64,000 nucleotides of DNA from an uncultured Candidatus Saccharibacteria bacterium (GCA_964554485.1 CAZKOX010000001.1:9363-73362), one strand, 5' to 3'. Shown: positions 1 through 17,343, numbered from the stretch's first letter. Notes: a model not told the origin generated them from the letters alone. Numbers and translations: made by a program.

Positions 1-608
1 AGGTGAACAACAACAATTTTGGGTGCTAATTTTCCTGCAGCTTCGAGTTTTCTCATAACTGAAGATACTGATAGACCATGATAGCCAAAGCGCTTAATAT
101 CAAAGTTTTCAGCGTCTTTAAGCGAGATGCCGTAGTATTTTGAATAATCTGGACGGTTTGCATGAAAGGCGCTGTCTGATGCGCCGAAGATCTGTACGCC
201 TGCAAATTGTTTTCTTAAACTTTCTAGTTCTTCAAGACATGCAGTTACGTGGATAGGCGCAAGACTAATCGCGTTTTCAAGCCGTTTTTGGTATTCATCG
301 TCTATTCGCCGATGTTGCAAAAAATAGCTACCAGGCGCTACTACTCGAAGGCCAATAGCGCTAATCGTTTCTTCGGGCCTTAGAAGTTCGGCGGAACGCA
401 AAATTTGTAATACTTTTGATGACGCCTCCGATAAACTAGCGATATCGGCAAAAACAGATGTTTTAGAGGGAGATGGTGACAGGGTGTATTCTAGTTCTTT
501 ATTGATCCATTCAAAATGTACTTCAGCGCGAAGATTCTCGCCTTCATAAAGTGCATATTTTCGGCTGGCGCTTCCTGGGTTAGCAATAAGAACTAGCGAG
601 CCGTCCAT
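1..608 (-). CDS. ackA: acetate kinase (N-terminal part; 3' end runs off window)
   Basis: Reverse-strand translation from ATG at 608: MDGSLVLIANPGSASRKYALYEGENL...KIVVH, matching the acetate/propionate kinase N-terminal ATP-binding signature. Lies directly downstream of phosphoketolase, the classic xfp-ackA pairing. Confidence 0.75.
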   Translation of the reverse strand, partial: MDGSLVLIANPGSASRKYALYEGENLRAEVHFEWINKELEYTLSPSPSKTSVFADIASLSEASSKVLQILRSAELLRPEETISAIGLRVVAPGSYFLQHRRIDDEYQKRLENAISLAPIHVTACLEELESLRKQFAGVQIFGASDSAFHANRPDYSKYYGISLKDAENFDIKRFGYHGLSVSSVMRKLEAAGKLAPKIVVVH

Positions 609-2938
609 GTCCACTCCTCAATTTCCGGTAAGTCAACGCCATGGCGCTTGATGTACTCGGTGTTTTCGTCGATTTTTTGCTTATATTTTGTTGCAATATG
701 TTCAGCTTCGGAATATGGTAAAACCTCGAGTTTTCCTAGTTTTTCGAAAATTGCTATTACGAGATCGTAGCGGCTTGTATGGTTACGGACATGCATGTCA
801 AATGGTGTAGTGGTGCTACCGTTTTCAATATAGCCGCGCACGTCAAAACGCTGTGGATCGTGCGTGTAGTTAAATAGTAGCGCCTTGACTGTCTCTGGAT
901 ATCCGTGAAAGTTGCAGATAACAGGCTTGTCTTTAGTGAACTGATCTTCAAAGCCAACTTGAGTAACACACAAACCACCTCTTCCAAAACCGCAGCTGGT
1001 AAGCGAGCTAATGTTGACGCATCGGATCTTAACTTCTGGCCACTCCTTTTTTGCAAGATCAATGGCCGCCATAACTTCCTTCATTGGATAGTCACCGGCT
1101 GCCGCAAGGACGATATCTGGGTTGGGGTCGGAGGCAAAATGCCAGGTCATTAGTCCACTCTCAACCTGTTGCTTGGCGAGCTTTGGAGTAAGCCAGCGTG
1201 GCTCTTGAGTCTTCCCAGCCACCATAATATTGATTTGCCGAGTCGTTTTGAGTATGTGGTCAAGAGTTGCTAATGTTGTGTTGCCGTCCGGAGGAAAGAA
1301 GACATCAACAAAATCTCCCTGGCGCTGCAATGCGTCATCAATAAAACCGGGGTTTTGATGACTAAATCCATTGTGGTCTTGCCGCCAGCCAGAACTGGTT
1401 AAGACGTAATTAAGTGAAGGAATGGTGCCGCGCCAAGCTACTTCCCGCGATTGATTTAGGAACTTCGCATACTGGTCCATCATGCTAACTATGACTTGTA
1501 TGAAAGCCTCATAGCTGGCGAAAATACCGTGTCGTCCAGTCATGATATAACCCTGAATCAAACCCTGAAGATTGTGTTCGCTAAGCATTTCCATAACCCT
1601 GCCGTTTGGCGACAGGTCTTTGTCCCAATCTTCGATCGGCCACTGCCAGGCGCGCTTGGTTTCTTCAAAAACGGCGTCAAGTTTATTTGAATAAGTCTCG
1701 TCCGGGGACATTAATCTAAAATTATTATTTTCTTCATTGAGTTTAAAGACTTCTTTTAAGTATAGTCCGGTACGGCGCATACTACTACTGCCGATTGTAC
1801 CGGGGATTGTGGCGTCTTCAGCAAATTTATCAGCTTCAGGTAAAACCAGTGGTTTATATACTGGATCTCCACCAAGGGCGTGTTTACTCATTCCAAGACA
1901 TTTGTGTGGGTCGCTTGGAATAATATCTTTCACAAACTCACCAAATCCTGTTTTCTCATCAAATAGTTCGTCGAATTTGTAACTTCTTAACCAGTCGTTT
2001 AAAAGCTGAAGCTGTTTCTTGTCGGTTTTTGCCTCTGTCAAAACTACTTGATGGCTCAAGCAATTTCCTTCAACTTTTTGGCCGTCTAGTTCTTTTACGC
2101 CGGTCCAGCCTTTTAGCGTACGCATGATAATCATCGGAGACTGTGTCGACGGCTTATGGCTGCCGGTTTTGATTTTTTTAATTAGCTGATGTGCTTTTTC
2201 AAGAGCGTCAGACATTTTTTTATGTGGGTTTTCGCCAACTGTCGTATCAACCAAGATCGGATGGTAGCCGTAGCCACTAAAAAGCGCCATTAATTCGTAA
2301 TTACTCATTCTCCCAAAAATTGTTGGGGCAGAGATCTTGTAACCATTAAGATGAAGAATCGGCAGTACAGTACCGTCAGTTTTTGGGTTAACTAATTTGT
2401 TTAGGTGCCAAGCACCGGCGGTCGGACCGGTCTCGGCTTCACCATCACCAACCAAGCAAGCTACTAGCAGCTCTGGGTTATCAAGAGCCGCACCATAAGA
2501 AGTAGATAAGGAGTATCCAAGTTCACCGCCTTCTAAGATAACTCCTGGTGTACCCGGGTTGCTGTGACTCGGGAATCCGTAAGGCCAACTAAACTGCCGG
2601 CACATATATTCGATACCATCGAGAGTCTGGGGAGTTTCCGGATAAAATCGTCCCAACGTACCTTCTATGAACAAGTTAGCTTGAAGGGCAGGGAACGCGT
2701 GGCCCGGGCCCAACACGAATAACATTTCTTGGTCATAAAATTTCGCCAATCGACTTAGGTGGGCGTAAGCAAAGTTTACGCCAGGCCCGCTACCCCAGTG
2801 CCCTAAAAGACGGGGCTTAATATCATCGAAAGTGTGGTCGCGCTGGCTCAAGAAGTTATTTTGCAAAAATATTTGAGCAGCGGTCAGGTAGTTAGCTGCT
2901 CGTAGGTATTTGTCTATACTTGAAAAGTCGTCGTTCAT
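593..2938 (-). CDS. xfp: xylulose-5-phosphate/fructose-6-phosphate phosphoketolase
   Basis: 781 aa with XFP family hallmarks (GHWGSGPG, EGGELGYSLS, GDGEAETGP thiamine-diphosphate region). Stop overlaps the ackA start by 16 nt. Confidence 0.9.
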   Translation of the reverse strand: MNDDFSSIDKYLRAANYLTAAQIFLQNNFLSQRDHTFDDIKPRLLGHWGSGPGVNFAYAHLSRLAKFYDQEMLFVLGPGHAFPALQANLFIEGTLGRFYPETPQTLDGIEYMCRQFSWPYGFPSHSNPGTPGVILEGGELGYSLSTSYGAALDNPELLVACLVGDGEAETGPTAGAWHLNKLVNPKTDGTVLPILHLNGYKISAPTIFGRMSNYELMALFSGYGYHPILVDTTVGENPHKKMSDALEKAHQLIKKIKTGSHKPSTQSPMIIMRTLKGWTGVKELDGQKVEGNCLSHQVVLTEAKTDKKQLQLLNDWLRSYKFDELFDEKTGFGEFVKDIIPSDPHKCLGMSKHALGGDPVYKPLVLPEADKFAEDATIPGTIGSSSMRRTGLYLKEVFKLNEENNNFRLMSPDETYSNKLDAVFEETKRAWQWPIEDWDKDLSPNGRVMEMLSEHNLQGLIQGYIMTGRHGIFASYEAFIQVIVSMMDQYAKFLNQSREVAWRGTIPSLNYVLTSSGWRQDHNGFSHQNPGFIDDALQRQGDFVDVFFPPDGNTTLATLDHILKTTRQINIMVAGKTQEPRWLTPKLAKQQVESGLMTWHFASDPNPDIVLAAAGDYPMKEVMAAIDLAKKEWPEVKIRCVNISSLTSCGFGRGGLCVTQVGFEDQFTKDKPVICNFHGYPETVKALLFNYTHDPQRFDVRGYIENGSTTTPFDMHVRNHTSRYDLVIAIFEKLGKLEVLPYSEAEHIATKYKQKIDENTEYIKRHGVDLPEIEEWTWTAR

Positions 2939-2993
2939 AACTCTTATGTTAATTGTATCTTTTATGTTTAGTAATATCTAACTTATATATTTG

Positions 2994-4232
2994 TTATTCT
3001 CGTCGCAACGCATCGATAGGGTTAATTTTAGCTGCTCTTCTGGCTGGCAGGAATACTACGGATAGACCGACCAGAATCATGAATAACACCAACCCAACAA
3101 TTAACCAAACCGGGGTAGCAAAGAGATCGAATGACTCATTGACACCTCTTTGACTAGCGAAACGATAAAGGATTACATTAACTATGGCTCCACCTCCAAC
3201 CGCCAGTACTATTCCAAATATTGATCCAACCAAGGAAAGAAGTATTGCCTCAAAAATAAATAGTCGTTTGACATCTCGGTTTCGTGCGCCCAAGGCCATC
3301 ATAAGGCCAATTTCTTTTGTTCTTTCAAGCAAAGAGACGGTTAGGGTGTTAAACATTCCCAATACAGCAACGATCATTCCGATGGCTCCAAAACCGAATA
3401 GTACGTAGTTAAATACCTTAAAAATTTGATTAATCTGGTCAACTGTGTCGGCAGGAGAAGTTGTAAGCAAACCAAGACTCTCAATTTGCTTACGAAGAGG
3501 GAGGACATTTTCTGTGTGATCAACAACTAGTTTCATTTGAGAATATGAGGTAACTCCGGCATTTTCAAATATATAGTTTGGAATAAAAACTTCACTTCCT
3601 GAACCGGAATCGACAATGCCGACAATAGTATAGGTGTCCTCTATCTCCTTAACTTCAGAGGTGGTTTTATCTTTAAGGGGAATAAGTAGGGATATTTTCT
3701 TGTTTATTAAATTGGTTTTTTCGTCTCCGCCGATAGCTTTAATGACAGAGTGGTTTATGACAGCAACTTTTGCGTCATTATCGCTCATACCCCGTCCTTT
3801 GACGAAATTTAGATTAGCTAGATCTTGATAATTCTTATCATATCCATATACGACGCTATCTATCTCGCTACTGTTGATCTTGAGGCTACCAGGGAAAGAG
3901 AATGATGAACCTATTGTTTGAACATGCGGAAGATTTTTTATCTTTTCCTTCATGCCGCTAGTCAACTTAACCACTTTTGAGTTTGGACTAGTAATGTCAA
4001 TAGATTTTATAGATTGGTTGCCGATAATTTCTTCTGTAACAAGATTTCGAACACCTATGCCGAATGATAGTAAGAAGAATATTGCTCCAATTCCAATAGT
4101 AATTCCAAAAACAGTTAAGAATGTGCGAAGTTTTTTTGAAACTAAGTTCTTCCAGGCAACATGAAGCAGTATTTTTATATTTATCCTGCGGCGCTTACGA
4201 AGCATTTTTGTTACTACATCAGATTTTTCCAT
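2994..4232 (-). CDS. ABC transporter permease, MacB/FtsX-like (N-terminal TM, large extracytoplasmic domain, C-terminal 3-TM FtsX domain)
   Basis: 412 aa; an N-terminal TM helix then a roughly 230-aa soluble domain, then the FtsX-type membrane domain (ALGARNRDVKRLFIFEAILLSLVGS...). Overlaps the upstream ATPase gene by 14 nt. Confidence 0.8.
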   Translation of the reverse strand: MEKSDVVTKMLRKRRRINIKILLHVAWKNLVSKKLRTFLTVFGITIGIGAIFFLLSFGIGVRNLVTEEIIGNQSIKSIDITSPNSKVVKLTSGMKEKIKNLPHVQTIGSSFSFPGSLKINSSEIDSVVYGYDKNYQDLANLNFVKGRGMSDNDAKVAVINHSVIKAIGGDEKTNLINKKISLLIPLKDKTTSEVKEIEDTYTIVGIVDSGSGSEVFIPNYIFENAGVTSYSQMKLVVDHTENVLPLRKQIESLGLLTTSPADTVDQINQIFKVFNYVLFGFGAIGMIVAVLGMFNTLTVSLLERTKEIGLMMALGARNRDVKRLFIFEAILLSLVGSIFGIVLAVGGGAIVNVILYRFASQRGVNESFDLFATPVWLIVGLVLFMILVGLSVVFLPARRAAKINPIDALRRE

Positions 4233-5085
4233 GACTACCTCCTAGTAGATTTTCTGCAGCTTGATCTACGGTCGGCGGAGGCGTTAACGTAGCTGGCGCA
4301 GGAGATCTCTTAGCTGAGAAACGATCAATTCGGGATTTCATATCTTGCATTAGTTTATCTGTTGTTGTGGAAATCGAGTCGCTTACCATCTCCTTAACAT
4401 ATCCATCTTCGATATGGATAAGGTGATCGGCGAGTGGAAGATACTCCATGTTATGCGTAACAAGTATGATTGTTCTTTTAGAATCAGTCTGAGTTGAACG
4501 AAGTAGTTCCATGATTTTGTCGCCACTTTTACTATCAAGGCTGCCCGTCGGCTCGTCGGCGATAATAAACATAGGCCTATTAACAATGGCTCTAGCCATC
4601 GCTACTCTTTGTTGCTCACCCCCGGATAGAAGTATTGGATACTTTTTGGAGTAACTCTGCATTCCAACTTGCTCCAAGGCACGATAGGCTGCTTCTGCGG
4701 CCTTAGCCTTTGTGTACCCAAGAAAATATAGTGGCATCGAAACGTTCTCTATTACGCTTAAACTCTTTACCCAAAAGTTTTGCTGATAAACGATGCCTAT
4801 TTCGTTTGCTCGGAAATGTGCAAGGCGATCTGGCGAAAAGTTATATATGTCGCTCTGATCAAATAATATTTCTCCATTAGTTGGCCTGAGCAGTCCAGTT
4901 AGAATATTAAGCAGAGTTGACTTACCTGATCCTGAGGGACCGTAGATAATATTGAATGTGTTTTCTCTAATTTCGAAACTTACATCTTTCAAGACATCAA
5001 AGGTTTCGTCGCTGACTCTAAAGCTTTGATTGACCCCAGTTGCCTTAATAATTACTCTTTTACTATTATCCATTTTATAGTCCAA
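4219..5085 (-). CDS. ABC transporter ATP-binding protein (MacB/LolD-type) with about 60-aa C-terminal extension
   Basis: Walker A GPSGSGKST, ABC signature LSGGEQQRVAMARA, Walker B IIADEPTGSLD. Start overlaps the giant protein stop by 11 nt. Confidence 0.9.
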   Translation of the reverse strand: MDYKMDNSKRVIIKATGVNQSFRVSDETFDVLKDVSFEIRENTFNIIYGPSGSGKSTLLNILTGLLRPTNGEILFDQSDIYNFSPDRLAHFRANEIGIVYQQNFWVKSLSVIENVSMPLYFLGYTKAKAAEAAYRALEQVGMQSYSKKYPILLSGGEQQRVAMARAIVNRPMFIIADEPTGSLDSKSGDKIMELLRSTQTDSKRTIILVTHNMEYLPLADHLIHIEDGYVKEMVSDSISTTTDKLMQDMKSRIDRFSAKRSPAPATLTPPPTVDQAAENLLGGSHGKI

Positions 5086-8000
5086 AAACTTGCTTTAAGG
5101 TATTGAGAATTATTGTTAACACGCTATCTGATGCTCGTCCGACAATCGCAGATTCTGTTGCACCTAGCCCGGTATTTCCGGCCCTGTCTTTAGAGATTGG
5201 AATTAAACTATAAACACGAGATGTAGGTAGGTCGGAAACAATCACGATGTGTTCAGTGGTTAGTTGAGTGTCCTCGGCGGTTTTGTTGTTGTAATTAGCT
5301 GCATTAGATCCTTCAGCATAGCCAACCTGGCTTGTTGCTGGTTCGTCGGTTTTCCATGAAACAACTACCTGGCCTCTTGCTTCCGCGCCAGTTCCACGAA
5401 TTGCGGATTCAATACTTATCTCTGACACTTTTGGCGGTCTTGTGTCTAGGGCTGTATGAAATTGTTGCCTATCAGAGACTGCAATATTTCCACCTTCATC
5501 TCTAGACTGAGCGACTAAGAAGTACTCGCTGTCGTCTTCAAGGTTACGAATTATTATTTCGTGATCAGTAACCAGATCAAGTACTTGTGCTTCCGTTCCA
5601 CTAGTTCCAACTTTCCCGTATGTAACTAAAGAATTGGCAGGCACGTTTGTTGTCCATGTAACAGTTTGGGTACTGGTTGGTTCGCCGATTATTGGCTGGA
5701 AACGGAGATCAGTTATTCGTGGACGCTGTGGTGTAGTAAACGAGAATACGCTACTTTCGTATGATGAGTTTTCATTATCAAATGTCAAAAGCTTGTAGAA
5801 ATATTTTGTACCATCATCAAGACCTTCAAGCTCGATTGAATAGGTAGATTCAGACAGAGAAGTATTAACTGTTGTGATCCCGCCGTAGTTTTCTCCTTTT
5901 CCGTAAAGTATAGACACCTTGGTTGCCTCTTTAGACGTAAAGGTAATTGCGGCTGTTGTTAAGCCGACGCGGCTAACTGTAATTTCTTTTAAGGACGGGG
6001 CAGGCGATGTGGTGAAGCTAAACTCTTGGCTCGTTCCAGTATTACCATCTTCATCAGTCCACTTTGCTATAGCATAGTAGGTTGTACCAGCACTTAAATT
6101 ATCTAGCTCAATTTCGTGAGCACTTACCTGGGCTGATATTGCTACTTCGGAAGGACTGTATTCACCACTAGCAGTGCCAAGCGCGATTTTTGAATCACTA
6201 GCTCTGTCCGTGCTCCATGAAACAGTAGCGCGTTTTGTGGTGATATTGCTAACTTCTGGGTTAGCGACCAAGGTAGCAGGTGAGGTGAATTTTCCGGTCG
6301 GAACTTCATTTACGACCGAACTATTTGCTCCGCAGTTATTTGTACTGTCGCAAGCTCGAAGGCGGTAGTAGTATCTCTGCTGGGCTAAGCCGGCGTCGAT
6401 ATATGTTGTACTTGAGCTACTGCCTACCTGTGAAAAAGTAGCATTATCGGTTGATCTATAAACCTTATATGAAGAGATTCCTGCCCCAACATCTGCTGGC
6501 TCGTTCCAGGTTATCGCAAGCCGCCAATTGTTAGTTGCCTTAATTGACACATCAACAATGTCGAGGTTTTCCGATATTCCAGGTGAAGGTGTGTTGGCGG
6601 TGAATACGGCAGTTCCGTAGTTGTCGTAGTTGATATTGCTAGACTCGTCTCTAGCGACCACATATATAGTATTTTCACCTGGTTGTGTCGCATAAGGACC
6701 AGCGCCTAGTGCCGTTACTCCAGCTGATGTGAAATTACAATTTATAGATGTTGGTATGGCATTTATCGTGTAACAGTACGTCAGGTTATTTACATCTCCA
6801 ACAAAAGTCGCAGGTGCGTCCCAGTCAAAAGCGAAAGAGTTTGTTACATTACTGGAAGGAGAGGCGATAATATTCAAAGGTTCTGAAGGAGCGCCACTAG
6901 TATTAATCTTAAGAGCAGCGGTTGCATAAGTACTGCTAACATTACCGGCATTATCCCAGGTCCTGAAGTAGACAGTATTTATACCCTCCTCTAAATCTAC
7001 AAAGTCTGGTGTGGGTATTGTGGTGTAACTACCGTCGTTGGCGAGTACGTCGTTTGAGTCACCGGTTCCTGTATGCGAGTCTCCGTACCAATTACCTGCA
7101 CCTATACGGTATTGCAGACCAACTAATCCGGAATTTATATCGCTCGGAGAACTAATTCCAGTGGTAGGCCAAGTTAAAGTAACCTCCTTAGAATTAATAA
7201 ACCCAGAAGGTGCGGTTATGTAAGCCGGGTTGGTTGGTGCGGTGTTATCGAACTTAAATGTGAACTGCTCGGTCGTATTGCTTATGTTTCCGGCGTTGTC
7301 GATGGCTTTGGCGAGTAAATAATAATTAGAATTGGAAGTGCTAAGAGGTGTAGCGATATATCCAGCGGTTGCGGTGTCTATGTTGTTGGTAGATATCATA
7401 AATTGGCAGTGGCCACCGGTTTCTACGGGACTTGTGCCAAGTAAACCTTTTGTAGTAACTGGGTCGGCAGTATCATCTGTCCCAAGATATAAACAATATC
7501 CTTTTATTCCGGATTCGCTATCAACCCCGGCTGTCCAGCTGAAATATGGCGATAGCCCATTAGACCAGGCGCCACTATTCAAGACACTACCTCCGTTAGC
7601 TTTTAGTGCAGCGATACTTGTGGCGTTTGCCGAAGGGTCAATAATATCTGAAGTTGCGGTTGCAGTAACACCATTTAAAGTAACTCTTTGGCTGCCGTCG
7701 CCCTGAAGTATCGCCTCCCATCGTAAACCATTGAACGTAACGGGGAAGCTGCTAATGTTGGTACTAATAGTTGTCTTGTTGTTTGCTTCAGCTATTGATC
7801 CGGATGTTTCCCAACTGTCGCCGTCCCAGTACTTCCATGTTGCGCCGTCATCGGACGAAAGGCGATACAGGATAGTTCCTCCATTTAGGGTTTCGTCAGC
7901 GTCAAAACTATCCCAGTGCCATACACCACTTTGTCGAACAGGTTCATTAAGTGAAATGCTCAAGGCGGCGTTGCTGTATGGTTTAGTGTTAAATGACGAC

Positions 8001-11000
8001 CTATTAATATTAGATATCCGAATCTCATCTAAACTACCTTCGAAGAAACCCTGAGAACGTCCATTATCAAACCCGCCATAAGATTTGCCGATTAATAAAT
8101 CCTGGTCACCGTCAGGAATAGTTAAGCTAGTATTATGAGTGCCAACGCTATTACCATCGATTAATATTTCCATGGTGGTGCCATTGTAGCGTCCTGCTAT
8201 GTGGTGCCAATTAGTATCTTGAGTGCTGGTTGAAGACTGAATAAAACCGTTATTACCGTAAGACCAAATCATGGCGTCGCCATTTGCAGTGTTCCCGGTG
8301 CTTGCGTATAACTTGCCTTGATAAACAACCATCGTTGTAACTTCTTCAATTGTGGTGTCTAGCCAGCTATCATTAAAACCATCGCCACCCACTTGCGCCC
8401 AGGATGTCCCGTTATATCTCCATACTTCACCGTCTCCAGTACTTAAACCGAGGCCGGCGTACAAGTCACCGTTATATGTAGCCATTGAACGAACGCGGTC
8501 GTAGTTATTAGAATCTAGCCAGCCCATATTGTCGCTGCCATTGCTGTCGCCGCCAATTTGCTCCCAGACTGGACTGCCGCTATCACAGTCTGAGCACGCC
8601 CAGACTTCGGCATCGTTGTTTGGAGTACCGGTACCAGATAACCCTAGTCCTACAACTAGCTTGTCGTTCCATACAACCAGAGACTGAATGTCCTCATATT
8701 TTGTGTTTGCCCAGCTGCTGTTTATGGCATCTCCTCCGACTTTTGTCCAAGTCGTACCGCTACCACTATACCGCCAGACCTCTGCTAATCCTGCAGCATT
8801 TGCACCTAGCCCAACATAAAGCGAACCCCTGTATGTTGCCATCGAACTGATGGTTGTATAGCTAGCTGTGCCCCAGTTGCCGGAAGCCGTTCCACCGATT
8901 GCTGCGCCACCCCAGTTAGGGCTCCCGCCGTCACATCCGGTGCATTCCCAGACTTCGCCATCTCCAGCACTTGATCCGAGGCCGGCGTATAATTTTCCAT
9001 TAGCAACACCAAGAGAGTAAACATATTCATAAGTCGTACTCCATGAACTGCCGACGGACGGGCTGCCGTCTGCAACCTTTGTCCAGCCTGGATTATCAAA
9101 TCTCCAAACTTCTGCTTCCCCGGCAGTACTTCCTAAACCGACGTATAATTTATTTTTATAATTTACCATCGACCATACTGCTTCATATGTATCGATAGCC
9201 CAACTGGAATCTATGCCTTGTCCACCAACAACCGACCAGAATCCAGTTGAAGGATCAAGCTCCCAGACAGTCGCATCCCCGGCAGTATTATTTCCAGTGC
9301 CGACATACATTTTGCCTCCGGCTGTAGTCGAAGATTCGATACTATCAATATTGTATTGACCCCAGCTTTTATTGACATATTTTCCACCTATACGATTTCC
9401 ACCCCAAGTTGGTGAACCGCCGTTGCAGTTCGTGCACTGCCAAAAATATGCTTCAGTCGTGTTAGTTAAGCCAGCATATACTGTTGTGTCATCTACAACA
9501 AGTGCTCGAATGCTATTATGCGTTGCATTCCAGCCGCTGTTCACATTGTCACCGCCAACTTTTGTCCAAGAACCGTCATATCGCCATACTTCGTCGTCGC
9601 CGTTTGCTGAGTTTCCTGTACCAACATACAGAGTTGAACCGTTATTGGTAATGCTAAAGATACCTTCTTTATCTACTCCAAAGTTCGCCGAACTTCCTAA
9701 TTTTGTCCAACCACTTCCAGTAGGCGTGCAGTTAATGGTGACATCACAAGACCATATTTCGGCATCGGTATTGGCGGTAATACCTGTACCAACATAAATT
9801 GTATTTCCGTTAGATGCCATCGACAAAACATACTCAGCGACAGACCCCCAACTTTGACCGCCGGCTCCAGAGCCATCACCTCCTCGCTTAGTCCAAGATG
9901 CAGAACCCGGAGTGGTGCAACTGGCGGTGCAATGCCATACTTCTGCATCACCAGCCGTAGAGCCAAGTCCTACCACTGGATTACCACCGACAACGGTCAT
10001 TGCATAAACAACTTCATAACCCGCACCCCAGCCACGAGCGCCACCGGTAGCGTTGTAGCCACCAACACGGCTACTTCCCCAGCTAGGGCTAGTCTCACAG
10101 TTAGTGCACGCCCACACTTCTCCCATATTTGCGCCTGTTCCTAGACCAGCAAATAGTGTCGTTCCGCTTACAGCTAACGAATAGACTCCATTAAAAGCAT
10201 TGCCAGCCCATCCACTATTAAGTCCGTCACCGCCAATTTTAGTCCAGGAACCAGACTTAAATCTCCAAACATCTCCGTCGTTAGTACCTGTTCCCAGACC
10301 GGCATAGAGAACATCTGTGCCGTTAGTCGCTAGGGACAATACTGCCTCGTAGGCATTGGTGCTAATCTCATTATTCCAACTGGAAAAAATACCATCTCCG
10401 GCTACTTGAGCCCACAACCCCAAAGAGGTGTCATATTCCCATATCTCAGCGTCATTAGTGCTGCCACCAAGGGCGGCATATATCTTTGACCCCATCTTTA
10501 CAGATGCGTAGGCGGTTTGTTTTCCATTTTGGTCCCAGCTGCGGTTTACCTTAGCTCCATTATTGGCCAACATGTTATATCCGGCCTGTTGTGTCCAACC
10601 CGTTGATCCTGAATTCTCTAATTCATAAGTAACTTTTCCAGTTTCATTATCGTAGTAGAGCTGGTATTCACCCTTATCTAAGATAGTCTGCCTATATTGT
10701 GAGCTTCCAGCGCTAAAGTTGCTGTCAAATTTTGTCCAACCTTCTAGGGTATTACTTGCTGTGAGCGAAAGCGATGCTGAGTCTGGCGAGATAGCATACT
10801 GAGAAGTGCCGTCTAGGGATAGGCTGTTATTTAAATTACCGGTTGCCCAGATTGGTGTATTGTTTGTGATGGCGTCATTATTGTTTGCAGAAGAATCATC
10901 TGCTGTCGTTCCGCCAAGTTCGTCAAGGTGGAATAGGGCCATGGTGTTAGCGTCGCTTGTGTAGTTCTGGGCTTTCATGCGCACGCTACTACCGCTTGTC

Positions 11001-11362
11001 TCAAGGTTGTCGTCGAAGCTGTAATCCGATGGGGTTAAGAAGTCCCAAGTGTTGTTTAGGTCAGCAGCGAATGCGACCCTGTAAGAAGTAAATAAGACAC
11101 CAAAGACTGCAAGAACATAAATAGCAAGAACAGAAAAATGTAACTTTCCATGATGTTGCCAGGTGTGCCAATTTTTGTACCATTCGACCCTTTCCATAAA
11201 GAATAGGTGAGGTCTTTTGGCGGTATGGTGGTGAATAAAAAGAACAATTTTTTTCGTGTAAAGGTGAGAAAATTTAGCAATATTTAAAAAAAGTCGACCG
11301 ACAAAGCCAACAAAGTAGCGTAGTGCACGACCAAGCATAATGATAATGTTTCTAACATTCAT
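5075..11362 (-). CDS. giant (about 2040-2095 aa) membrane-anchored surface protein: about 14 tandem ~55-aa repeats (probable beta-propeller), LamG/ConA-like lectin domain, several FN3-like domains
   Basis: Single ORF. The first ~55 codons of the ORF look non-protein-like; the more likely start is the MERVEWYKNW... ATG near 11197, followed by a TM/signal segment (LAIYVLAVFGVLFTSYRVAFA). Repeats of form WTKxGGDGxNSxW...LYxGLGxxxGDxEVW, a LamG signature (GSLDEIRISN), and C-terminal FN3-like segments (YYYRLRACDSTNNCG). Confidence 0.8.
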   Translation of the reverse strand: MNVRNIIIMLGRALRYFVGFVGRLFLNIAKFSHLYTKKIVLFIHHHTAKRPHLFFMERVEWYKNWHTWQHHGKLHFSVLAIYVLAVFGVLFTSYRVAFAADLNNTWDFLTPSDYSFDDNLETSGSSVRMKAQNYTSDANTMALFHLDELGGTTADDSSANNNDAITNNTPIWATGNLNNSLSLDGTSQYAISPDSASLSLTASNTLEGWTKFDSNFSAGSSQYRQTILDKGEYQLYYDNETGKVTYELENSGSTGWTQQAGYNMLANNGAKVNRSWDQNGKQTAYASVKMGSKIYAALGGSTNDAEIWEYDTSLGLWAQVAGDGIFSSWNNEISTNAYEAVLSLATNGTDVLYAGLGTGTNDGDVWRFKSGSWTKIGGDGLNSGWAGNAFNGVYSLAVSGTTLFAGLGTGANMGEVWACTNCETSPSWGSSRVGGYNATGGARGWGAGYEVVYAMTVVGGNPVVGLGSTAGDAEVWHCTASCTTPGSASWTKRGGDGSGAGGQSWGSVAEYVLSMASNGNTIYVGTGITANTDAEIWSCDVTINCTPTGSGWTKLGSSANFGVDKEGIFSITNNGSTLYVGTGNSANGDDEVWRYDGSWTKVGGDNVNSGWNATHNSIRALVVDDTTVYAGLTNTTEAYFWQCTNCNGGSPTWGGNRIGGKYVNKSWGQYNIDSIESSTTAGGKMYVGTGNNTAGDATVWELDPSTGFWSVVGGQGIDSSWAIDTYEAVWSMVNYKNKLYVGLGSTAGEAEVWRFDNPGWTKVADGSPSVGSSWSTTYEYVYSLGVANGKLYAGLGSSAGDGEVWECTGCDGGSPNWGGAAIGGTASGNWGTASYTTISSMATYRGSLYVGLGANAAGLAEVWRYSGSGTTWTKVGGDAINSSWANTKYEDIQSLVVWNDKLVVGLGLSGTGTPNNDAEVWACSDCDSGSPVWEQIGGDSNGSDNMGWLDSNNYDRVRSMATYNGDLYAGLGLSTGDGEVWRYNGTSWAQVGGDGFNDSWLDTTIEEVTTMVVYQGKLYASTGNTANGDAMIWSYGNNGFIQSSTSTQDTNWHHIAGRYNGTTMEILIDGNSVGTHNTSLTIPDGDQDLLIGKSYGGFDNGRSQGFFEGSLDEIRISNINRSSFNTKPYSNAALSISLNEPVRQSGVWHWDSFDADETLNGGTILYRLSSDDGATWKYWDGDSWETSGSIAEANNKTTISTNISSFPVTFNGLRWEAILQGDGSQRVTLNGVTATATSDIIDPSANATSIAALKANGGSVLNSGAWSNGLSPYFSWTAGVDSESGIKGYCLYLGTDDTADPVTTKGLLGTSPVETGGHCQFMISTNNIDTATAGYIATPLSTSNSNYYLLAKAIDNAGNISNTTEQFTFKFDNTAPTNPAYITAPSGFINSKEVTLTWPTTGISSPSDINSGLVGLQYRIGAGNWYGDSHTGTGDSNDVLANDGSYTTIPTPDFVDLEEGINTVYFRTWDNAGNVSSTYATAALKINTSGAPSEPLNIIASPSSNVTNSFAFDWDAPATFVGDVNNLTYCYTINAIPTSINCNFTSAGVTALGAGPYATQPGENTIYVVARDESSNINYDNYGTAVFTANTPSPGISENLDIVDVSIKATNNWRLAITWNEPADVGAGISSYKVYRSTDNATFSQVGSSSSTTYIDAGLAQQRYYYRLRACDSTNNCGANSSVVNEVPTGKFTSPATLVANPEVSNITTKRATVSWSTDRASDSKIALGTASGEYSPSEVAISAQVSAHEIELDNLSAGTTYYAIAKWTDEDGNTGTSQEFSFTTSPAPSLKEITVSRVGLTTAAITFTSKEATKVSILYGKGENYGGITTVNTSLSESTYSIELEGLDDGTKYFYKLLTFDNENSSYESSVFSFTTPQRPRITDLRFQPIIGEPTSTQTVTWTTNVPANSLVTYGKVGTSGTEAQVLDLVTDHEIIIRNLEDDSEYFLVAQSRDEGGNIAVSDRQQFHTALDTRPPKVSEISIESAIRGTGAEARGQVVVSWKTDEPATSQVGYAEGSNAANYNNKTAEDTQLTTEHIVIVSDLPTSRVYSLIPISKDRAGNTGLGATESAIVGRASDSVLTIILNTLKQVFGL

Positions 11363-11517
11363 TCAGATATTTTTGACTCGACTGTCAAACCCCTAAAACC
11401 CCTAATATTCTGACTCAAATAATAACATAAACACTACAGTTCTTAGCTCGTTATTTTAGCTTAACTTGAGCATAAGCATGTTGTGCAGATCACAAAGAAT
11501 GTTTAACATGTATTTAT

Positions 11518-12354
11518 ATGAGAAAAAACGTCAAAGGTTTTTCGGTAGTCGAAGCAGTTATTATTTTGGTAGTCGTGGCGGTCTTGGGGCTTTCGGGTTG
11601 GTGGTTTTTACAACGTCGTTCTAACACTGACAATTCTCAAAATAATAATGAAACAAGCAAAGAAGAAACCAGTTCAAACGTAAATTGGAGCTTTGACGGC
11701 GAAAAATGGAGCAGTAGCGAAGCACCACCGGCTTGCGATGATCCGTTATCGATACCTTCGCCAGTTGATATTTCAAAAGCTACGGGAATTTTATATCCAG
11801 GGCAGTATCGAGGTGGAAACTACAAACCGCACGGAGGTTTTCGATTTGATAGCAGCACCAACGCAGATATAACAGTCACGGCACCATTTGATTCGGTTGT
11901 CATAAAGGGAAGTCGATATATAGAAAGAGATGAAGTGCAGTATATGTTTGTTCTTACGACTTCCTGCGGAATTATGTATCGTTTCGATCATCTGTTGACC
12001 TTGTCTGCTGCTTTTCAAGCCTTAGCCGACACGTTACCGGCAGCAAAAGTCGATGATTCTCGAACCACTGATTTTACCTCGCCGCCAAAAGTTAAGGCTG
12101 GTGACATTATTGCGACGGCAGTTGGTTTCAAAAACACCGGTAATGTTGCGGTCGACTTCGGGGTATATGACTTAAGGCAAAAAAACAAAGCCTATGAAAG
12201 TGATAGCTGGAAAGCTGAACATTCTAATGACATGGAGGCGGCACCTTACGGTATCTGTTGGTTGAACTATTTGGCTGGTAGTGCCAAGGACGTTGCTTTA
12301 GAACTCCCGGGGGCTGACGGTCAGGCTGGTAAAACTAGTGATTACTGCGAGTAA
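11518..12354 (+). CDS. type IV prepilin-like protein (class III signal peptide)
   Basis: N-terminus MRKNVKGFSVVEAVIILVVVAVLG matches the prepilin peptidase motif [KR]-G|F-x-x-x-E followed by a hydrophobic helix. 278 aa with 4 Cys in the C-terminal half. Confidence 0.65.
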   Translation: MRKNVKGFSVVEAVIILVVVAVLGLSGWWFLQRRSNTDNSQNNNETSKEETSSNVNWSFDGEKWSSSEAPPACDDPLSIPSPVDISKATGILYPGQYRGGNYKPHGGFRFDSSTNADITVTAPFDSVVIKGSRYIERDEVQYMFVLTTSCGIMYRFDHLLTLSAAFQALADTLPAAKVDDSRTTDFTSPPKVKAGDIIATAVGFKNTGNVAVDFGVYDLRQKNKAYESDSWKAEHSNDMEAAPYGICWLNYLAGSAKDVALELPGADGQAGKTSDYCE

Positions 12355-13303: not shown

Positions 13304-16300
13304 ATGAAAATATTCAATCGTTCAAGCCTCAAAAAAACAAAAAGTGTCTTAATGTCAGCTGTGCTTTTGGCATCACAAGTTGTGCCGTTTTTAGGTTTAT
13401 CAGCAACCGCTAAAGCGGCAGATACTGGATTTAATTTACCAACTACGACACATACTCCGAATGGTTGGGGCGCCGGGGCTCTCGGTGATGCAAGTAATGG
13501 ACTTACTGATAATGGCCAATATGCAGAAGCAAATCCACAAAATCAGCCAGAACAGGGTTTTTCAAATTTTGGTATTTCGATTCCCGCTGGATCAATTATT
13601 GATGGAATCCAACTACAAGCAGAAGCTAAGTCAAATGATAGCGGGACAGACTGTGATCTAGGGGTCGAGCTTTCTTGGAATAACGGTACTAATTTTACTT
13701 CGAGTGGTTTTAATGAGAGCTTGGGTTCTTCAGATGCACTGGAAGTCTTTGGTGGCGCTTCAAGTACTTGGGGTAGAAGCTGGAGTGCAGCTGAATTTAG
13801 TAATGCAAACTTTGTTGTTCGACTTAAGGCCATTGATCCTAGTCAATGTAGTGACAGTTCTATAACATCTGTTGATTATCTACAAGTGAAAGTTTATTAC
13901 ACCGAGCCATCGGACCTAGTAGTAACGAAGTCGAATAATGTAAGCGGGTCGGTTGTTGTCGGTAATTCCTTCAACTGGGTTCTAACAGTTTCAAACAACG
14001 GGCAAGGATCAGCTAGCTTCAGTAATAATCAAGATATTTTGCAAGATAACTTGCCAACAGATGCGAGTTATTCAAACCCTGCGGTATTAACTGGTGGCGG
14101 AGTAACCGGAACGATTGATTGTGGAATATCAAGCGATAACCTTGATTGTGATGCTGATGGTACAGTAGTAATCCCTGCCGGTGGCTGGTTTACTGTCACT
14201 ATCACTGTTACACCTGACGGCGTAGGTACTCTTGCTAATCCCCGAAGTGGTGGCGGTAATATGTGTAAGGTTGATCCAGATAACTTAAAATCTGAATCAA
14301 ATGAAGCAAATAACACCTGTAGCGACAGTGTTTCTGTAACACTAGTCCAACCATCACCTAACCCAGTACTTGGGCAGTCTTGTGGTCTTGATATTGCGCT
14401 CGTTATTGATAACTCAACAAGTATTGATAGCGGTGAGCTTGCAACCATGAAGACAGCAATGACGGCGTTTACGACTGCATTTGCTGGAACCCCAACCCAA
14501 TTTTCTGTTACTAGATTTGCCACAACAGGCGCGGTTTTGCAGCCATTCACTACGGACTTCACAGCCGTAAATTCAGCCATTAATGGCATTCCTGTTGGAG
14601 GCGGATACACTAACTGGGAAGACGGACTTCTAAAAGCTCAAGGCACATTTGACCCACGAACCAACCCGAACCTAGTTGTCTTTGCATCTGATGGCAATCC
14701 AAACCGTGTCGATAATGGTACAGATGTAAGTGAAACACAAGCTACCAACGAAGCAGTCCTAGTTGCTAATAATATAAAAACCGTTACTGGAGCACGCATA
14801 ATTGCCCTTGGTATCGGAAATGATCTTGATACAGCAAACTTACAGGCAGTATCAAGTGCTGATGCGGTAATAACAAGTGATTTTGCAGCGCTAGCGCAGA
14901 CACTTGCCGATCTTGCTGCGACACTATGTGGCGGTACGATCACAACAACCAAACTTGTCGATGTTGACGGTGATCCAAGTACAACCGGTGACCAAACTGT
15001 TGCTGAAAATTGGGAATTTGACGTAAATGGTAGCCCAAGCAACCCAAGTCCAGTTTCTACAGATGCGAATGGACAAACTCCAGCGGTAGAGGTTGATCCT
15101 GGAACTTATTCGGTAAATGAAACAGCAAAGAACGGCTATAAAGTAGTTGGTGCTAAATGTTACAAGAATCAAGAGGCGGTTGGTAGTTGGCAGAACGGCA
15201 GTACATCGGTTACAGGCATAACAGTCGGTGCTACAGATATCGTTTCATGTGTGTTCATCAATACCTTAAATCAAGGCACATTGATTGTTAAAAAGGTGGT
15301 TGTTAATGATAACGGCGGAAAACTTAATGCCGAAGATTTCGGGTTTAAAGTTGATGGTGGATCGACTGTTGCATTTGAATCAGATGGTCAAAATGATTTA
15401 ACAGTTACTGCCGGCGAGTATACAGTTACTGAACAGGAAGTGTCTGGTTACTCAGCAACCTACGATAACTGTACAGATGTCGTAGTACCTATTGCCGGTA
15501 GCGCAACATGCACAATTACAAACAATGACCGTGCACCAAGCCTAACGTTAAACAAGAATCTTGAAGATAACATTTATGGCGGTGGCTACAGTAGTGCGGC
15601 GTGGACACTCATAGCTAAAGGCGCGACAAACTTAAGTGGAAAATCAGGCGTAACAAGCGACTCAGATTTTAGCGCAGGAACGTACGAACTTAGTGAAGAG
15701 GGTCCAGGCGAGCCGGCCTTCATTATGGGTGATTGGGACTGTGGCGATGTCGACCTAACTGATGCAACACTTGTAGTAAATCTTGGCGATAACATCACTT
15801 GCACAGTGACCAATACAGCTGTTCAGCCGAAGTTGACAGTCATAAAAGTGGTTAAAAATGGTGATTCAGAAGGTGGAAAATCGGCCTCAGACTTTACGAT
15901 GAACGTAAGTGGAACCGATGTGAGTGATTCAAGCTTCTCTGGGGACGAAAACGGAACAACAGTTGGCTTGGACGCCGGATCTTACGAAGTAACCGAAGGC
16001 GACCACGAAGGATATGCTGTTGAATACAGTAAAGGTTGCGAAGGCACAATCGAGCTAGGAGAAGAGTTAACCTGTACTGTTACGAACACTAGACTTGGAA
16101 CAATCAAGATTGTTAAGGACGCACAGCCAGATTCAGAACAGGCCTTTACCTTCACTGGTAATTTAACTGGTGACGACGGTCCTAACTTTGAGCTTACTGA
16201 TGACGGAGTTAATCCAGGCCTTGCCTATAGAGAGTTTGCGCTCGAAGAAGGCACTTACACTGTTACAGAACCAAGCGTTAAGGACTGGGATCTTGATTCA

Positions 16301-17338
16301 ATTAACTGTACCGAAGGAAGTGACGTTAATGTCAACGAGCGAAATGTTGTGATCAAGCTTGGAATTGGTGAGAACGTAACATGTACCTTCATAAATAAAC
16401 AGCGCACTGGAAATGTTACGGTTGTTAAGTATAACGATCAAGACCGCGATGGATACTTCGATGAAGACGAAACAACACTACCGAACTGGGACATTGTTCT
16501 TGGCGAAACTACACAAACAACAGATGTTAACGGCGAAACAACCTTTACCAACCTTCTTCCAGGCTGGCATGAGCTAAGTGAAGTTCAGCAGGATGGCTGG
16601 AATTACAGCGATACTTACTGTGAGTACGACGGTGAGCCAGCTGGCACATGGGAAGGTGACTACTATGCTCAAGTCTATGCCGACGAAACAACCCACTGCT
16701 ATATCGGCAACTACAAAGATCCTGCTCTTCAAATCGCCAAGACCAACAACTCTGGCGAATCCAAGAAGGTTGAGGAAACAGTTACTTACAGCATTACACT
16801 TGCAAATGCAGCTGACGGCTCGTTCCTTTACAACCCAAGTGTTAGCGATACGCCACCAGCTGGATTTAGCTACGTAAGCGGCAGCTGGACGGCAACATCC
16901 GACCTTCGCGGCGATCTAAAAGCTGCGCTAGTTGTGGCAGAACCAAACTTTGGCGTTAGCCCAGTGGTCTGGACCTTTGGCGGAGCTGATGCTTCAGAAG
17001 ATGTCTTGATGCCAGGCGAAACAATTACCTTGACTTACCAGATGAAAATTGCCAAAAGTGTAGTACCAGGAACTTACACTAACTATGCAACTGGCTCGGC
17101 TTGCGGAATACGAGAGTTCAACTATGAAGATACAATCTACCGAATCGTTAATGAACAGTTAGTGAATCGTGACTGCGTCACTACAGAAAAAGTTCATAGC
17201 GACGTAAAAGTTAAGGGTGTAACAATTGTTCTTGCGCAGACTGGTGTATCTAGCTACATACCAGTGGCGTTTGGACTGGTCTTAATTGGCGGAGCGCTAC
17301 TTACTACTCGACGAAAATTTGTTCTGGATAAGGAATAG
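13304..17338 (+). CDS. sortase-anchored giant adhesin: signal peptide, vWA (MIDAS DxSxS) domain, multiple ~90-100-aa prealbumin/CnaB-like repeats, C-terminal LAQTG sorting signal
   Basis: N-terminal signal peptide (MKIFNRSSLKKTKSVLMSAVLLASQVVPFLGLSATAKA). DIALVIDNSTSIDSGEL vWA/MIDAS block. Repeated GxYxVTE...GY...C...NxTCTxTN modules. C-terminus LAQTG + hydrophobic stretch + TTRRKF positively charged tail. Confidence 0.85.
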   Translation: MKIFNRSSLKKTKSVLMSAVLLASQVVPFLGLSATAKAADTGFNLPTTTHTPNGWGAGALGDASNGLTDNGQYAEANPQNQPEQGFSNFGISIPAGSIIDGIQLQAEAKSNDSGTDCDLGVELSWNNGTNFTSSGFNESLGSSDALEVFGGASSTWGRSWSAAEFSNANFVVRLKAIDPSQCSDSSITSVDYLQVKVYYTEPSDLVVTKSNNVSGSVVVGNSFNWVLTVSNNGQGSASFSNNQDILQDNLPTDASYSNPAVLTGGGVTGTIDCGISSDNLDCDADGTVVIPAGGWFTVTITVTPDGVGTLANPRSGGGNMCKVDPDNLKSESNEANNTCSDSVSVTLVQPSPNPVLGQSCGLDIALVIDNSTSIDSGELATMKTAMTAFTTAFAGTPTQFSVTRFATTGAVLQPFTTDFTAVNSAINGIPVGGGYTNWEDGLLKAQGTFDPRTNPNLVVFASDGNPNRVDNGTDVSETQATNEAVLVANNIKTVTGARIIALGIGNDLDTANLQAVSSADAVITSDFAALAQTLADLAATLCGGTITTTKLVDVDGDPSTTGDQTVAENWEFDVNGSPSNPSPVSTDANGQTPAVEVDPGTYSVNETAKNGYKVVGAKCYKNQEAVGSWQNGSTSVTGITVGATDIVSCVFINTLNQGTLIVKKVVVNDNGGKLNAEDFGFKVDGGSTVAFESDGQNDLTVTAGEYTVTEQEVSGYSATYDNCTDVVVPIAGSATCTITNNDRAPSLTLNKNLEDNIYGGGYSSAAWTLIAKGATNLSGKSGVTSDSDFSAGTYELSEEGPGEPAFIMGDWDCGDVDLTDATLVVNLGDNITCTVTNTAVQPKLTVIKVVKNGDSEGGKSASDFTMNVSGTDVSDSSFSGDENGTTVGLDAGSYEVTEGDHEGYAVEYSKGCEGTIELGEELTCTVTNTRLGTIKIVKDAQPDSEQAFTFTGNLTGDDGPNFELTDDGVNPGLAYREFALEEGTYTVTEPSVKDWDLDSINCTEGSDVNVNERNVVIKLGIGENVTCTFINKQRTGNVTVVKYNDQDRDGYFDEDETTLPNWDIVLGETTQTTDVNGETTFTNLLPGWHELSEVQQDGWNYSDTYCEYDGEPAGTWEGDYYAQVYADETTHCYIGNYKDPALQIAKTNNSGESKKVEETVTYSITLANAADGSFLYNPSVSDTPPAGFSYVSGSWTATSDLRGDLKAALVVAEPNFGVSPVVWTFGGADASEDVLMPGETITLTYQMKIAKSVVPGTYTNYATGSACGIREFNYEDTIYRIVNEQLVNRDCVTTEKVHSDVKVKGVTIVLAQTGVSSYIPVAFGLVLIGGALLTTRRKFVLDKE

Positions 17339-17343
17339 AACAA

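Follow-up and report, generated by a model that had tools for sequence, protein, structure and literature searches.

What does a giant surface protein have to do with the ATP-driven machine encoded directly behind it? A stretch of 64,000 nucleotides (nt) from an uncultured Candidatus Saccharibacteria bacterium (GCA_964554485.1 CAZKOX010000001.1:9363-73362; hereafter the window, with positions counted from its first letter) carries on its minus strand a gene for a giant protein (5075 to 11362; 2095 amino acids (aa) from the first ATG, M1; stop codon TAA at 5077-5075). It is followed on the same strand by the genes of an ATP-binding cassette (ABC) ATPase (4219 to 5073) and a MacB-type permease (2994 to 4232). 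The giant gene is among the largest in these reduced genomes, and its constant companion is an ATP-driven machine whose class is known for mechanical work outside the membrane. A sequence-only reading of the window had called the same open reading frame (ORF), which the ORF list and its translation confirm, and had suggested a dedicated export or processing system for a host-interaction adhesin. To our knowledge, it is largely unknown how Patescibacteria recognise and hold other cells beyond the use of type IV pili. We find that the giant gene and the ABC pair are strictly linked across related genomes, and we tentatively hypothesize that the giant is a Sec-exported modular binding protein which serves as the extracytoplasmic partner of a mechanotransmitting ABC system of type VII.

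Linkage of the giant gene with the ABC pair

Linkage was counted over 82 loci anchored on a giant homologue, 79 of which extend for at least 300 nt downstream of the giant gene. An ATPase homologue (44-70% identity) directly follows the giant gene in all 79, and a permease homologue (43-62% identity) is present in every locus with at least 2.1 kb of downstream sequence. The gap between the giant and ATPase genes has a median of 2 nt and does not exceed 10 nt in 70 of the 79 loci, inclusive of eight overlaps of 4 nt; the flanking genes are unrelated between loci. Looked up from the other side, on contigs outside the list of giants, permease-anchored loci have an ATPase gene and a giant gene directly upstream in four of four cases. 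The combination of giant gene and MacB-type pair is thus conserved in related genomes. The earlier reading had also considered that the ABC genes might be conserved elsewhere without the giant; no such pair was found among permease homologues at 55% identity or more. This pattern well supports the view that the giant and the ABC pair work together, and the manner in which they would do so is the subject of the models below.

The same pattern bears on a simpler explanation, namely that the pair is an ordinary efflux or envelope-defence transporter of the MacB, YtrEF or YknYZ type for substrates such as antimicrobial peptides or lipids, merely co-transcribed with the giant gene and mechanically independent of its product. 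JGI homologues are named 'ABC-type antimicrobial peptide transport system permease', the function of the YtrF system is listed as unknown (PMC11466899), and the nearest NCBIfam models are generic, all of which would suit such a pump. An independent transporter would, however, hardly account for linkage in both sets of loci (79 giant-anchored and 4 permease-anchored) at near-zero spacing and with complete turnover of the flanks, for a pairing that survives head swap, duplication and split of the giant gene, or for the lack of a giant-free copy among the homologues at 55% identity or more. We therefore regard it as improbable.

Some giant genes are interrupted. In a locus from a CPR2 genome (L083, 6001-12011, plus strand) the giant is split into ORFs of 1166 and 837 aa, which overlap by 4 nt and still precede the ABC pair, and split or fragmented giant genes also occur in L037, L063 and L082. 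These cases may represent real fission, a frameshift or an assembly error.

Among 5.8 billion proteins searched, giants of full length form more than 120 clusters (2000-2140 aa, 52-74% identity, 100% coverage), which, where names are given, belong to Candidatus Saccharibacteria, Saccharimonadales or Patescibacteria. With one genome taken per GTDB species, a relative of the giant is encoded in at least 203 genomes; among the 80 of these that are listed, nearly all are metagenome-assembled genomes of Saccharibacteria or Patescibacteria, next to a few uninformative names and one labelled Bacillota. These names support the assignment to an episymbiotic, reduced-genome lineage that had been made from the window alone. 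The giant gene is single-copy per locus in most genomes examined. In the cultured Southlakia epibionticum, the Tn-seq candidates SEML1_0890 and SEML1_0384 were considered as orthologues and rejected, being only 588 and 372 bp long. The same genome has a MacB-type pair of uncertain orthology beside a tRNA and without a giant (SEML1_0053/0054).

The ATPase (284 aa from the ATG at 5073) scores 113 bits against Pfam ABC_tran, and its motifs are intact (Walker A GPSGSGKST, signature LSGGEQQR, Walker B IIADEPT, H-loop VTHN). The permease (412 aa) comprises a first transmembrane helix (TM1), an extracytoplasmic MacB_PCD domain at aa 37-252 (PF12704; 70.1 bits, cut-off 27, profile positions 1-206 of 207) and an FtsX three-helix region at aa 281-405 (PF02687; 74 bits, cut-off 25.5). 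The Pfam matches agree with the initial description of an ABC ATPase and a MacB/FtsX permease with a large extracytoplasmic domain downstream of the giant on the same strand. The overlap of the two ABC genes holds as well, since the permease ATG (4232) lies 14 nt inside the ATPase end, with a GGAGG 6 nt upstream of it. An overlap of the giant stop with the ATPase start, which had also been reported, is not present: a single base separates the TAA (5077-5075) from the ATPase ATG at 5073, and only with the upstream TTG at 5085 as the start would the two genes overlap.

The nearest NCBIfam models for the ATPase are LolD, FtsE, DevA and MacB, all below cut-off, and the permease remains below the cut-offs for FtsX, LolC/E, MacB and YbbP. 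The models of FtsEX are missed (FtsE 178 bits versus 264.85; FtsX models 33-39.5 versus 225-255), as are those of LolCDE (LolD 200 bits versus 307.75; lolCE 57 versus 362). Because of these sub-cut-off scores the pair is not considered an orthologue of any of these named systems. In a PDB sequence search, the solved chains nearest to the permease are Bacillus subtilis YtrF (9o9x), MacB (5gko, 5lil, 5nik) and 5xu1, with Spr0695 among the nearest relatives. On these comparisons the pair is assigned to the type VII (MacB-superfamily) class. No adaptor of the HlyD/MacA type was found in the window neighbourhood or among the called genes of loci L001, L002 and L083-L088, and the statement that a MacA-like adaptor is missing here accordingly stands, as no HlyD or membrane fusion protein domain was detected in the window neighbourhood. 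At its C-terminus the ATPase continues past the nucleotide-binding domain for about 50 aa (aa 235-284; window 4219-4380, minus strand), with a Pro-rich end; alignments with its homologues end at about aa 250-257, and the last part is variable.

Anatomy of the giant protein

How the giant would leave the cytoplasm depends on where it begins. The sequence-only reading had placed the start at M56 (nt 11197) and had regarded the first 55 or so codons as non-protein-like. An alignment of 24 giant homologues contradicts both statements. It displays a constant order of parts, all encoded on the minus strand like the remainder of the giant: a variable, positively charged, presumably cytoplasmic tail (aa 1-44; 11231 to 11362), which is rich in K/R, of variable length and 19% identical on average; a conserved His/Trp motif, HHHxAxRPHxxL(5)WYxxWHxWxxHxHVH (aa 45-75; 11138 to 11230), which spans M56; and a single hydrophobic helix (aa 76-99; 11066 to 11137), recognised by a hydropathy scan and in the alignment, which ends in a putative signal-peptidase-I-type site, VAFA↓ADL in the window and [A/V/S/T]-x-A↓[A/S]-D-L in the family. 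The His/Trp motif (HHHxAxRPH...WYxxWHxW..HxHVH) is found in 22 of the 24 homologues, with its first half upstream of M56, and only one homologue starts close to M56. Because this conserved half precedes M56, the alignment places the start at or near M1 (11362) or M9 (11338), and the codons in question form a basic N-region and half of a conserved motif.

The Kyte-Doolittle plot of the giant has one peak above 1.5, at aa 71-101, and most of the 24 aligned sequences have a small residue at -3, Ala at -1 and then [AS]-D-L. The N-terminus is therefore most likely a Sec-type signal or anchor with a putative signal-peptidase-type site. When 6531 ORFs from the window and the relatives' loci were compared with a hidden Markov model (HMM) of the N-terminal motif region, only giants matched (64 matches, two of them in a locus with two giants), and since its matches are confined to giants, the motif is not a generic signal-peptide feature.

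A Sec-type signal of its own makes it unlikely that the giant is exported through the membrane by the ABC pair, as the initial proposal of dedicated export would have it, because MacB-type systems work on extracytoplasmic partners and do not pass proteins across the membrane (PMC11466899; PMC12646458). A related proposal is secretion of type I character, in which the ABC transporter would recognise the conserved C-terminal tail as an export signal and translocate the giant. The conserved and uncleaved-looking tail and the adjacent ABC genes do superficially resemble RTX/LapA-type systems. The permease, on the other hand, is of the FtsX/MacB type and not of the ABC_membrane (PF00664) fold of HlyB-type exporters, the giant possesses the N-terminal signal or anchor described above, and Pfam and NCBIfam detect neither RTX repeats nor a membrane-fusion or outer-membrane component. 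Type VII systems are also not known for passing polypeptides through the membrane (PMC11466899). Such secretion is largely refuted by domain content and appears highly improbable. Three known routes were considered separately and rejected: an autotransporter (no barrel, and an organism of the cell-wall type), a type I/RTX secretion system (no ABC_membrane, HlyD or RTX matches) and sortase anchoring of the giant. With regard to the latter, there is no LPXTG at the giant C-terminus, which ends in SVLTIILNTLKQVFGL, nor in the 24 homologues, and no LPXTG_anchor match.

The head of the giant follows the helix. Split at a recurring ...G-D-A-E-V-W motif, aa 251-1033 fall into 14 consecutive units of 48-61 aa, in line with the approximately 14 tandem repeats of some 55 aa that had been counted by eye. 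The units share two invariant Trp positions as well as one nearly invariant Trp and Gly, and are 24-51% identical to each other. Tandem Repeats Finder reported nothing at the DNA level in the giant gene, which argues for old protein repeats and not for recent DNA duplications. Neither Pfam nor NCBIfam has a family that reaches its cut-off on the repeat region, and PDB sequence searches, whether started from the 783-aa repeat region or from a profile built on its 14 units, found no relative.

The same profile, searched against 1.84 billion representative proteins, retrieved 1461 at E<=1e-3 and 110 at E<=1e-30, and the repeat counts among these relatives cluster at 7, 14 and 21. The window repeats score below the gathering thresholds of the Pfam Kelch models (E 0.65-8.4; Kelch_4 10.4 bits, E 0.65, with Kelch_6 and Kelch_3 weaker), whereas several of the relatives pass or approach them, such as P0144 with 31.3 bits for Kelch_4 (cut-off 21.6) and 26.7 for Kelch_3 (cut-off 22). 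The order of LYAGLG, EVW[RY] and W within the repeat is also the Kelch order. Hence the repeats, which had seemed impossible to place in any known family, are regarded, from profile comparison, as a probable divergent Kelch-type blade outside the capture of Pfam.

An AlphaFold2 (AF2) model of aa 95-1135, computed from an 81-sequence alignment (mean predicted local distance difference test score (pLDDT) 88.1, predicted template modelling score (pTM) 0.89), has about 56 strands over the 14 units, or four per blade. In a Foldseek search of the PDB, the best matches of the head are tandem 7+7 propellers over 800-970 aligned columns, with about 10% identity and TM-scores of 0.3-0.4. They include Elp2 (4xfv), Utp-type subunits of the small-subunit (SSU) processome, the ectodomain of the heparin sensor BT4663 (4a2l) and DDB1. 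The models are in keeping with the propeller-type array suggested earlier. The 14 blades most likely form two seven-bladed, distantly Kelch-like propellers with predicted ring closure, the first from units 1-7 (aa 251-641; 9440 to 10612) and the second from units 8-14 (aa 642-1033; 8264 to 9439), a division that rests on unit boundaries, AF2 and Foldseek and that is supported by the clustering of repeat counts in the relatives.

The propellers are predicted to be inserted into a LamG domain. In the native giant, Pfam Laminin_G_3 matches aa 1026-1122 at profile positions 52-146 with 44.6 bits (cut-off 27.6). When aa 254-1033 are deleted in silico, profile positions 1-146 are matched with 70.4 bits; the C-terminal half alone reaches 52.8 bits, to which joining the N-terminal half adds 17.6, and the N-terminal half alone has no Pfam match. 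As excision restores the whole profile, the LamG domain is judged to be present and to be interrupted by a 780-aa insertion that holds all 14 blades. Its jelly roll is composed of an N-terminal half at aa ~120-250 (10613 to 11005), seen in the split-profile match and as AF2 beta strands with pLDDT >90, and a C-terminal half at aa 1034-1125 (7988 to 8263), which contains GSLDEIRISN. The earlier view of a LamG domain downstream of the repeats was right about the domain and wrong about its simple position, given that one half precedes the repeats. To find two propellers inside a LamG loop is unusual, and this domain insertion is predicted with confidence. WWE3 proteins and proteins from a 'CPR2' Saccharibacterium also contain the unit of LamG with 14 blades.

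BFVD matches include structural and tail-fibre proteins of phages, among which LamG and propellers recur in combination, as well as LamG-jellyroll proteins. Among the relatives found with the repeat profile, P0164 is an 813-aa phage tail protein with Phage-tail_3 and Rcc01698_C domains and a C-terminal propeller of seven repeats of the same blade type. By analogy, the phage tail and LamG/propeller associations would fit a ligand-binding role for the head, without proving one. Mini-loops of the CxxC or Cx3-6C kind open blades 4, 5, 6, 8, 11 and 13 (giant aa 418-981, nt ~8420-10111); they are absent from most homologues, and the family consensus keeps one such pair.

The C-terminal half is a string of small domains. 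Four beta-sandwich domains, D1-D4, occupy aa 1134-1589 (6596 to 7963; AF2 pLDDT 87, with weak matches of the Big_13, Big_3_2 and OmpL47 types). They are followed by five domains of the FN3/Pur_ac_phosph_N type, D5-D9, at aa 1598-2074 (5141 to 6571), which were identified with Pfam, AF2 and Foldseek. Pfam fn3 and Pur_ac_phosph_N matches at aa 1605-1785 substantiate the FN3-like modules noticed before. AF2 of aa 1120-2095 (pLDDT 86.8, pTM 0.42) predicts nine beta-sandwich domains in a flexible string, and Foldseek returns FN3/Ig strings, such as those of titin/MyBP-C, contactin, gp130, ROS1/Sevenless and the base of the Aureispira grappling-hook protein (GhpA), with no enzyme fold among the matches. 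Three invariant Cys pairs (C1290/C1319, C1530/C1542, C1671/C1677) would fit an extracytoplasmic location.

The string is closed by a conserved C-terminal tail, IVGRASDSVLTIILNTLKQVFGL (aa 2075-2095; 5078 to 5140), for which the alignment and AF2 suggest an amphipathic helix, modelled at aa 2079-2093 with low pLDDT. Its hydropathy of 1.0 is too low for a transmembrane helix. Conservation of the giant is uniformly high (53-74% mean pairwise identity per region), and the most conserved segment consists of the last 25 residues, with the family consensus IIGRASDSVLTIILNTLQKVFG[FL] and 74% mean pairwise identity for the C-terminal tail.

Exchange of heads and the proposed role of the giant

Some relatives carry a different head on the same remainder. 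In one of the permease-anchored loci (L084), the giant has 1665 aa and an FG-GAP/FG-GAP_3 middle part with no similarity to the LamG/Kelch head. Its N-terminus displays the tail, the His/Trp motif, the helix and the AxA site, with 39% identity to window aa 44-90, its last 883 aa are 58% identical to window aa 1213-2095, and it precedes an ABC pair of the same type. This architecture with an FG-GAP head occurs in six clusters, and P0403 carries a DUF2341 head on the same C-terminal part. The part common to these variants, which we refer to as the chassis, begins at about aa 1213 and comprises eight of the nine beta-sandwich domains together with the conserved terminal helix of predicted amphipathic character. 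Sequence comparison thus describes the variation of the giants as an exchange of whole heads, with the anchor motif, the chassis, the terminal helix and the ABC pair kept constant, and such exchangeable heads offer a natural handle for studies of specificity.

Two further loci contain unusual arrangements. Locus L088 (598-12364, plus strand) has two tandem giants with FG-GAP heads (1619 and 1603 aa), followed by a single ABC ATPase and permease. Locus L079 (~1-4096, minus strand) has a divergently oriented giant paralogue with a degenerate N-terminal motif and a head of the DUF2341/LamG type, which is incomplete at the end of the locus; over its chassis the paralogue shares 46% identity with window aa 1107-2019.

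The permease does not follow the head. Its ectodomain is 54-55% identical to that of the window in loci with FG-GAP heads, compared to 52 +/- 2.6% in loci with LamG/Kelch heads (n=116). Because the ectodomain is no more divergent in the former, any contact with the ABC pair should involve the conserved chassis and not the head; likewise, the parts that co-vary with the ABC pair would be the N-terminal anchor region and the C-terminal chassis.

These data are also relevant to the idea that the giant is an S-layer-like or wall-spanning structural component, with the ABC pair assisting in its assembly or remodelling. A scaffold of this kind could explain why all domains, those of FN3 type included, are uniformly conserved (53-74%) at near-constant length, which may suggest many constrained surfaces, and why there is a single giant copy per locus in most genomes examined. 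The replacement of the head by FG-GAP or DUF2341 domains and the presence of tandem paralogues are, in contrast, typical of binding proteins and would be atypical of lattice subunits. The folds concerned (LamG, Kelch and FG-GAP) serve in binding, a phage tail protein has the same blade type, and the C-terminal half is predicted to be a flexible string (pTM 0.42). A scaffold role is accordingly doubtful, to a degree comparable with that of the independent pump.

Based on this dataset, the role introduced at the outset, for which we have a guarded preference, may be outlined as follows. The Sec pathway would insert the giant via its long N-terminal signal or anchor, consisting of the basic tail, the cytoplasmic His/Trp motif, the hydrophobic helix and the AxA-type site. 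The remainder would reside outside the cell as an exchangeable binding head on a conserved chassis, with a glycan or protein on another cell or surface as the most likely ligand of the head, and a function as host-interaction adhesin, as proposed earlier, is plausible. The ABC pair would use ATP hydrolysis in the cytoplasm to move an extracytoplasmic domain without carrying the giant across the membrane, and its mechanical work on the conserved parts of the giant would serve to deploy, hold or actuate this surface protein, in a mode similar to that of FtsEX acting on EnvC/PcsB and LolCDE acting on lipoproteins. Two variants can be envisaged. If actuation or anchoring continues after export, the C-terminal helix would be, by analogy, a candidate docking element for the FtsX-type permease; FtsX binds helices of EnvC, PcsB and RipC. 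Cleavage of the signal would then put the head at the distal end. Alternatively, the N-terminal anchor would be extracted once, in a Lol/Aat-like manner.

Taken by itself and without any later interaction, this second variant amounts to a biogenesis machine, which would pull the uncleaved N-terminal helix or the cleaved signal peptide from the outer leaflet and thereby release the giant to the wall, the surface or the medium. The conservation of the N-terminal His/Trp motif and helix together with the ABC pair despite the head swap would suit it, and so would the service of one ABC pair to the two giants in L088, as expected of an enzyme-like processing machine. Moreover, PMC12646458 and PMC11466899 describe recurrent extraction of membrane-embedded groups by type VII ABC systems, namely LolCDE and YbbAP-TesA. 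The putative signal-peptidase-type site, however, already offers a standard release route, the extreme C-terminal helix as the most conserved part would remain unexplained, and the module includes no gene for a LolA-like acceptor or chaperone (neighbourhoods of the window, L001, L002 and L083). A role limited to biogenesis thus seems rather unlikely, although it deserves more weight than the pump or the scaffold.

At the other end of the range, the MacB-type complex may serve a 2000-aa modular adhesin as membrane anchor and ATP-driven actuator at once. The complex would hold either the C-terminal helix, within its extracytoplasmic domain and as FtsX does with the helices of EnvC and PcsB, or the N-terminal His/Trp anchor, and ATP hydrolysis would extend, retract, tension or release the fibre. 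We consider this unlikely, and slightly more so than biogenesis alone; if true, type VII ABC systems would gain a new functional class, and wall-bearing episymbionts would have a new type of attachment control.

Several observations weigh against the giant being a binding protein worked by the ABC pair. Synteny indicates a functional link without telling its kind, and physical contact between giant and ABC pair, the end contacted, the ligand and the output of the work are all matters which we infer. The AxA-type site suggests that the anchor may be cut off, so that one candidate contact would be lost. The position of the head beside the membrane anchor and not at the tip of the stalk is uncommon among adhesins; it would be as expected if the signal were removed and the protein were held by its C-terminus. 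The domains of the putative stalk are 58-70% conserved, unlike typical adhesin spacers. A uniform conservation of 53-74% is also unlike that of a fast-evolving specificity factor and, with the stalk included, could point to a structural or assembly role. Finally, the annotation tables of S. epibionticum (PMC10633639 supplements) list no ConA-like, PF13385 or PF16656 protein. The family seems to be absent from this cultured strain, and therefore no phenotype from transposon sequencing (Tn-seq) is available for it.

Neighbouring genes and known systems

Within the window, a phosphoketolase gene (XFP domains; 593-2938, minus strand) starts 55 nt past the permease stop. It may be co-transcribed with the module here and is outside the conserved module elsewhere. 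A scan of 2700-11700 for promoters and terminators gave counts equal to those in shuffled sequence. On the other side, a divergently oriented ORF of 278 aa without Pfam or NCBIfam match (11518-12354, plus strand) is followed by a DUF1295 membrane protein. Further along, 13304-17961 (plus strand) encodes a 1344-aa protein with VWA, four SpaA_2, SpaA_4 and isopeptide domains and an LPXTG-like C-terminus, and a sortase gene comes next. Domain content identifies this as a sortase pilus or adhesin locus of Gram-positive type, with an orientation divergent to that of the giant gene; neither L001 nor L002 has such a locus beside the giant. A gap between ORFs contains two tRNA genes (33801-33875 and 34225-34297, plus strand), and a T2SSE/PilB-type ATPase gene is located near the window end (62219-63814, plus strand). 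The rest of the window is housekeeping, with aminoacyl-tRNA synthetases, UvrB, GatA/B and DnaE.

Type VII ABC systems are mechanotransducers with dedicated extracytoplasmic partners, according to PMC11466899 and PMC12646458, where they are described as activating extracellular enzymes, extracting lipoproteins or hydrophobic compounds or expelling molecules from the membrane's outer face. The window pair resembles FtsEX-EnvC/PcsB/RipC, LolCDE-LolA, YbbAP-TesA and MacAB-TolC in its separate nucleotide-binding domain and its permease of TM1, MacB_PCD ectodomain and FtsX-type helix bundle, and its genes likewise adjoin the gene for a protein outside the membrane. Unlike in these systems, the partner has about 2000 aa of LamG, propeller and FN3-like domains and is not a hydrolase activator, lipoprotein chaperone, thioesterase or adaptor; the contact between giant and ABC pair is proposed from the genes, unlike those of the named partners; and in contrast to MacAB-TolC, there is no MacA/HlyD adaptor. 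If the coupling is real, the type VII repertoire would gain a giant modular binding protein as a partner of a new kind, and a defined and testable candidate for energy-dependent control of surface attachment would be at hand.

Giant surface proteins have been proposed as host-attachment factors in Patescibacteria of the Candidate Phyla Radiation (CPR), for example in Absconditicoccaceae (PMC13059738), and FN3, VCBS and dockerin envelope proteins are essential in Southlakia epibionticum (PMC10633639). The window family is similar to them in its very large size, its signal or transmembrane segment, its FN3, concanavalin-A-like and integrin-type (FG-GAP) domains and its episymbiotic, reduced-genome hosts. 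These reports give domain content only, in generic statements that surface proteins of very large size carry FN3, ConA or integrin domains, and are without the nested LamG/propeller head, the chassis or an obligatory MacB-type partner. Our literature searches turned up neither this family nor any pairing of a MacB-type ABC system with a giant adhesin.

The blades compare with those of Kelch and galactose-oxidase-type propellers, of the BT4663 sensor (4a2l) and of Elp2 (4xfv) in being about 50 aa long and, as predicted, four-stranded, and they share with Kelch, in Kelch order, the hydrophobic run followed by Gly (LYAGLG), EVW[RY] and Trp. Unlike in Kelch or galactose-oxidase-type propellers, the predicted propeller pair of the window giant is inserted inside a LamG domain. 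The alternative heads (LamG/Kelch, FG-GAP, DUF2341) on a conserved chassis are reminiscent of phage tail fibres and polymorphic adhesins; in contrast to phage fibres, the giant is chromosomal and cellular, has a Sec-type signal and an N-terminal head, and is coupled to an ABC pair. The components are of known kinds, and it is their combination that is new: a nested head of LamG and two propellers, an anchor motif, a terminal helix and exchangeable heads.

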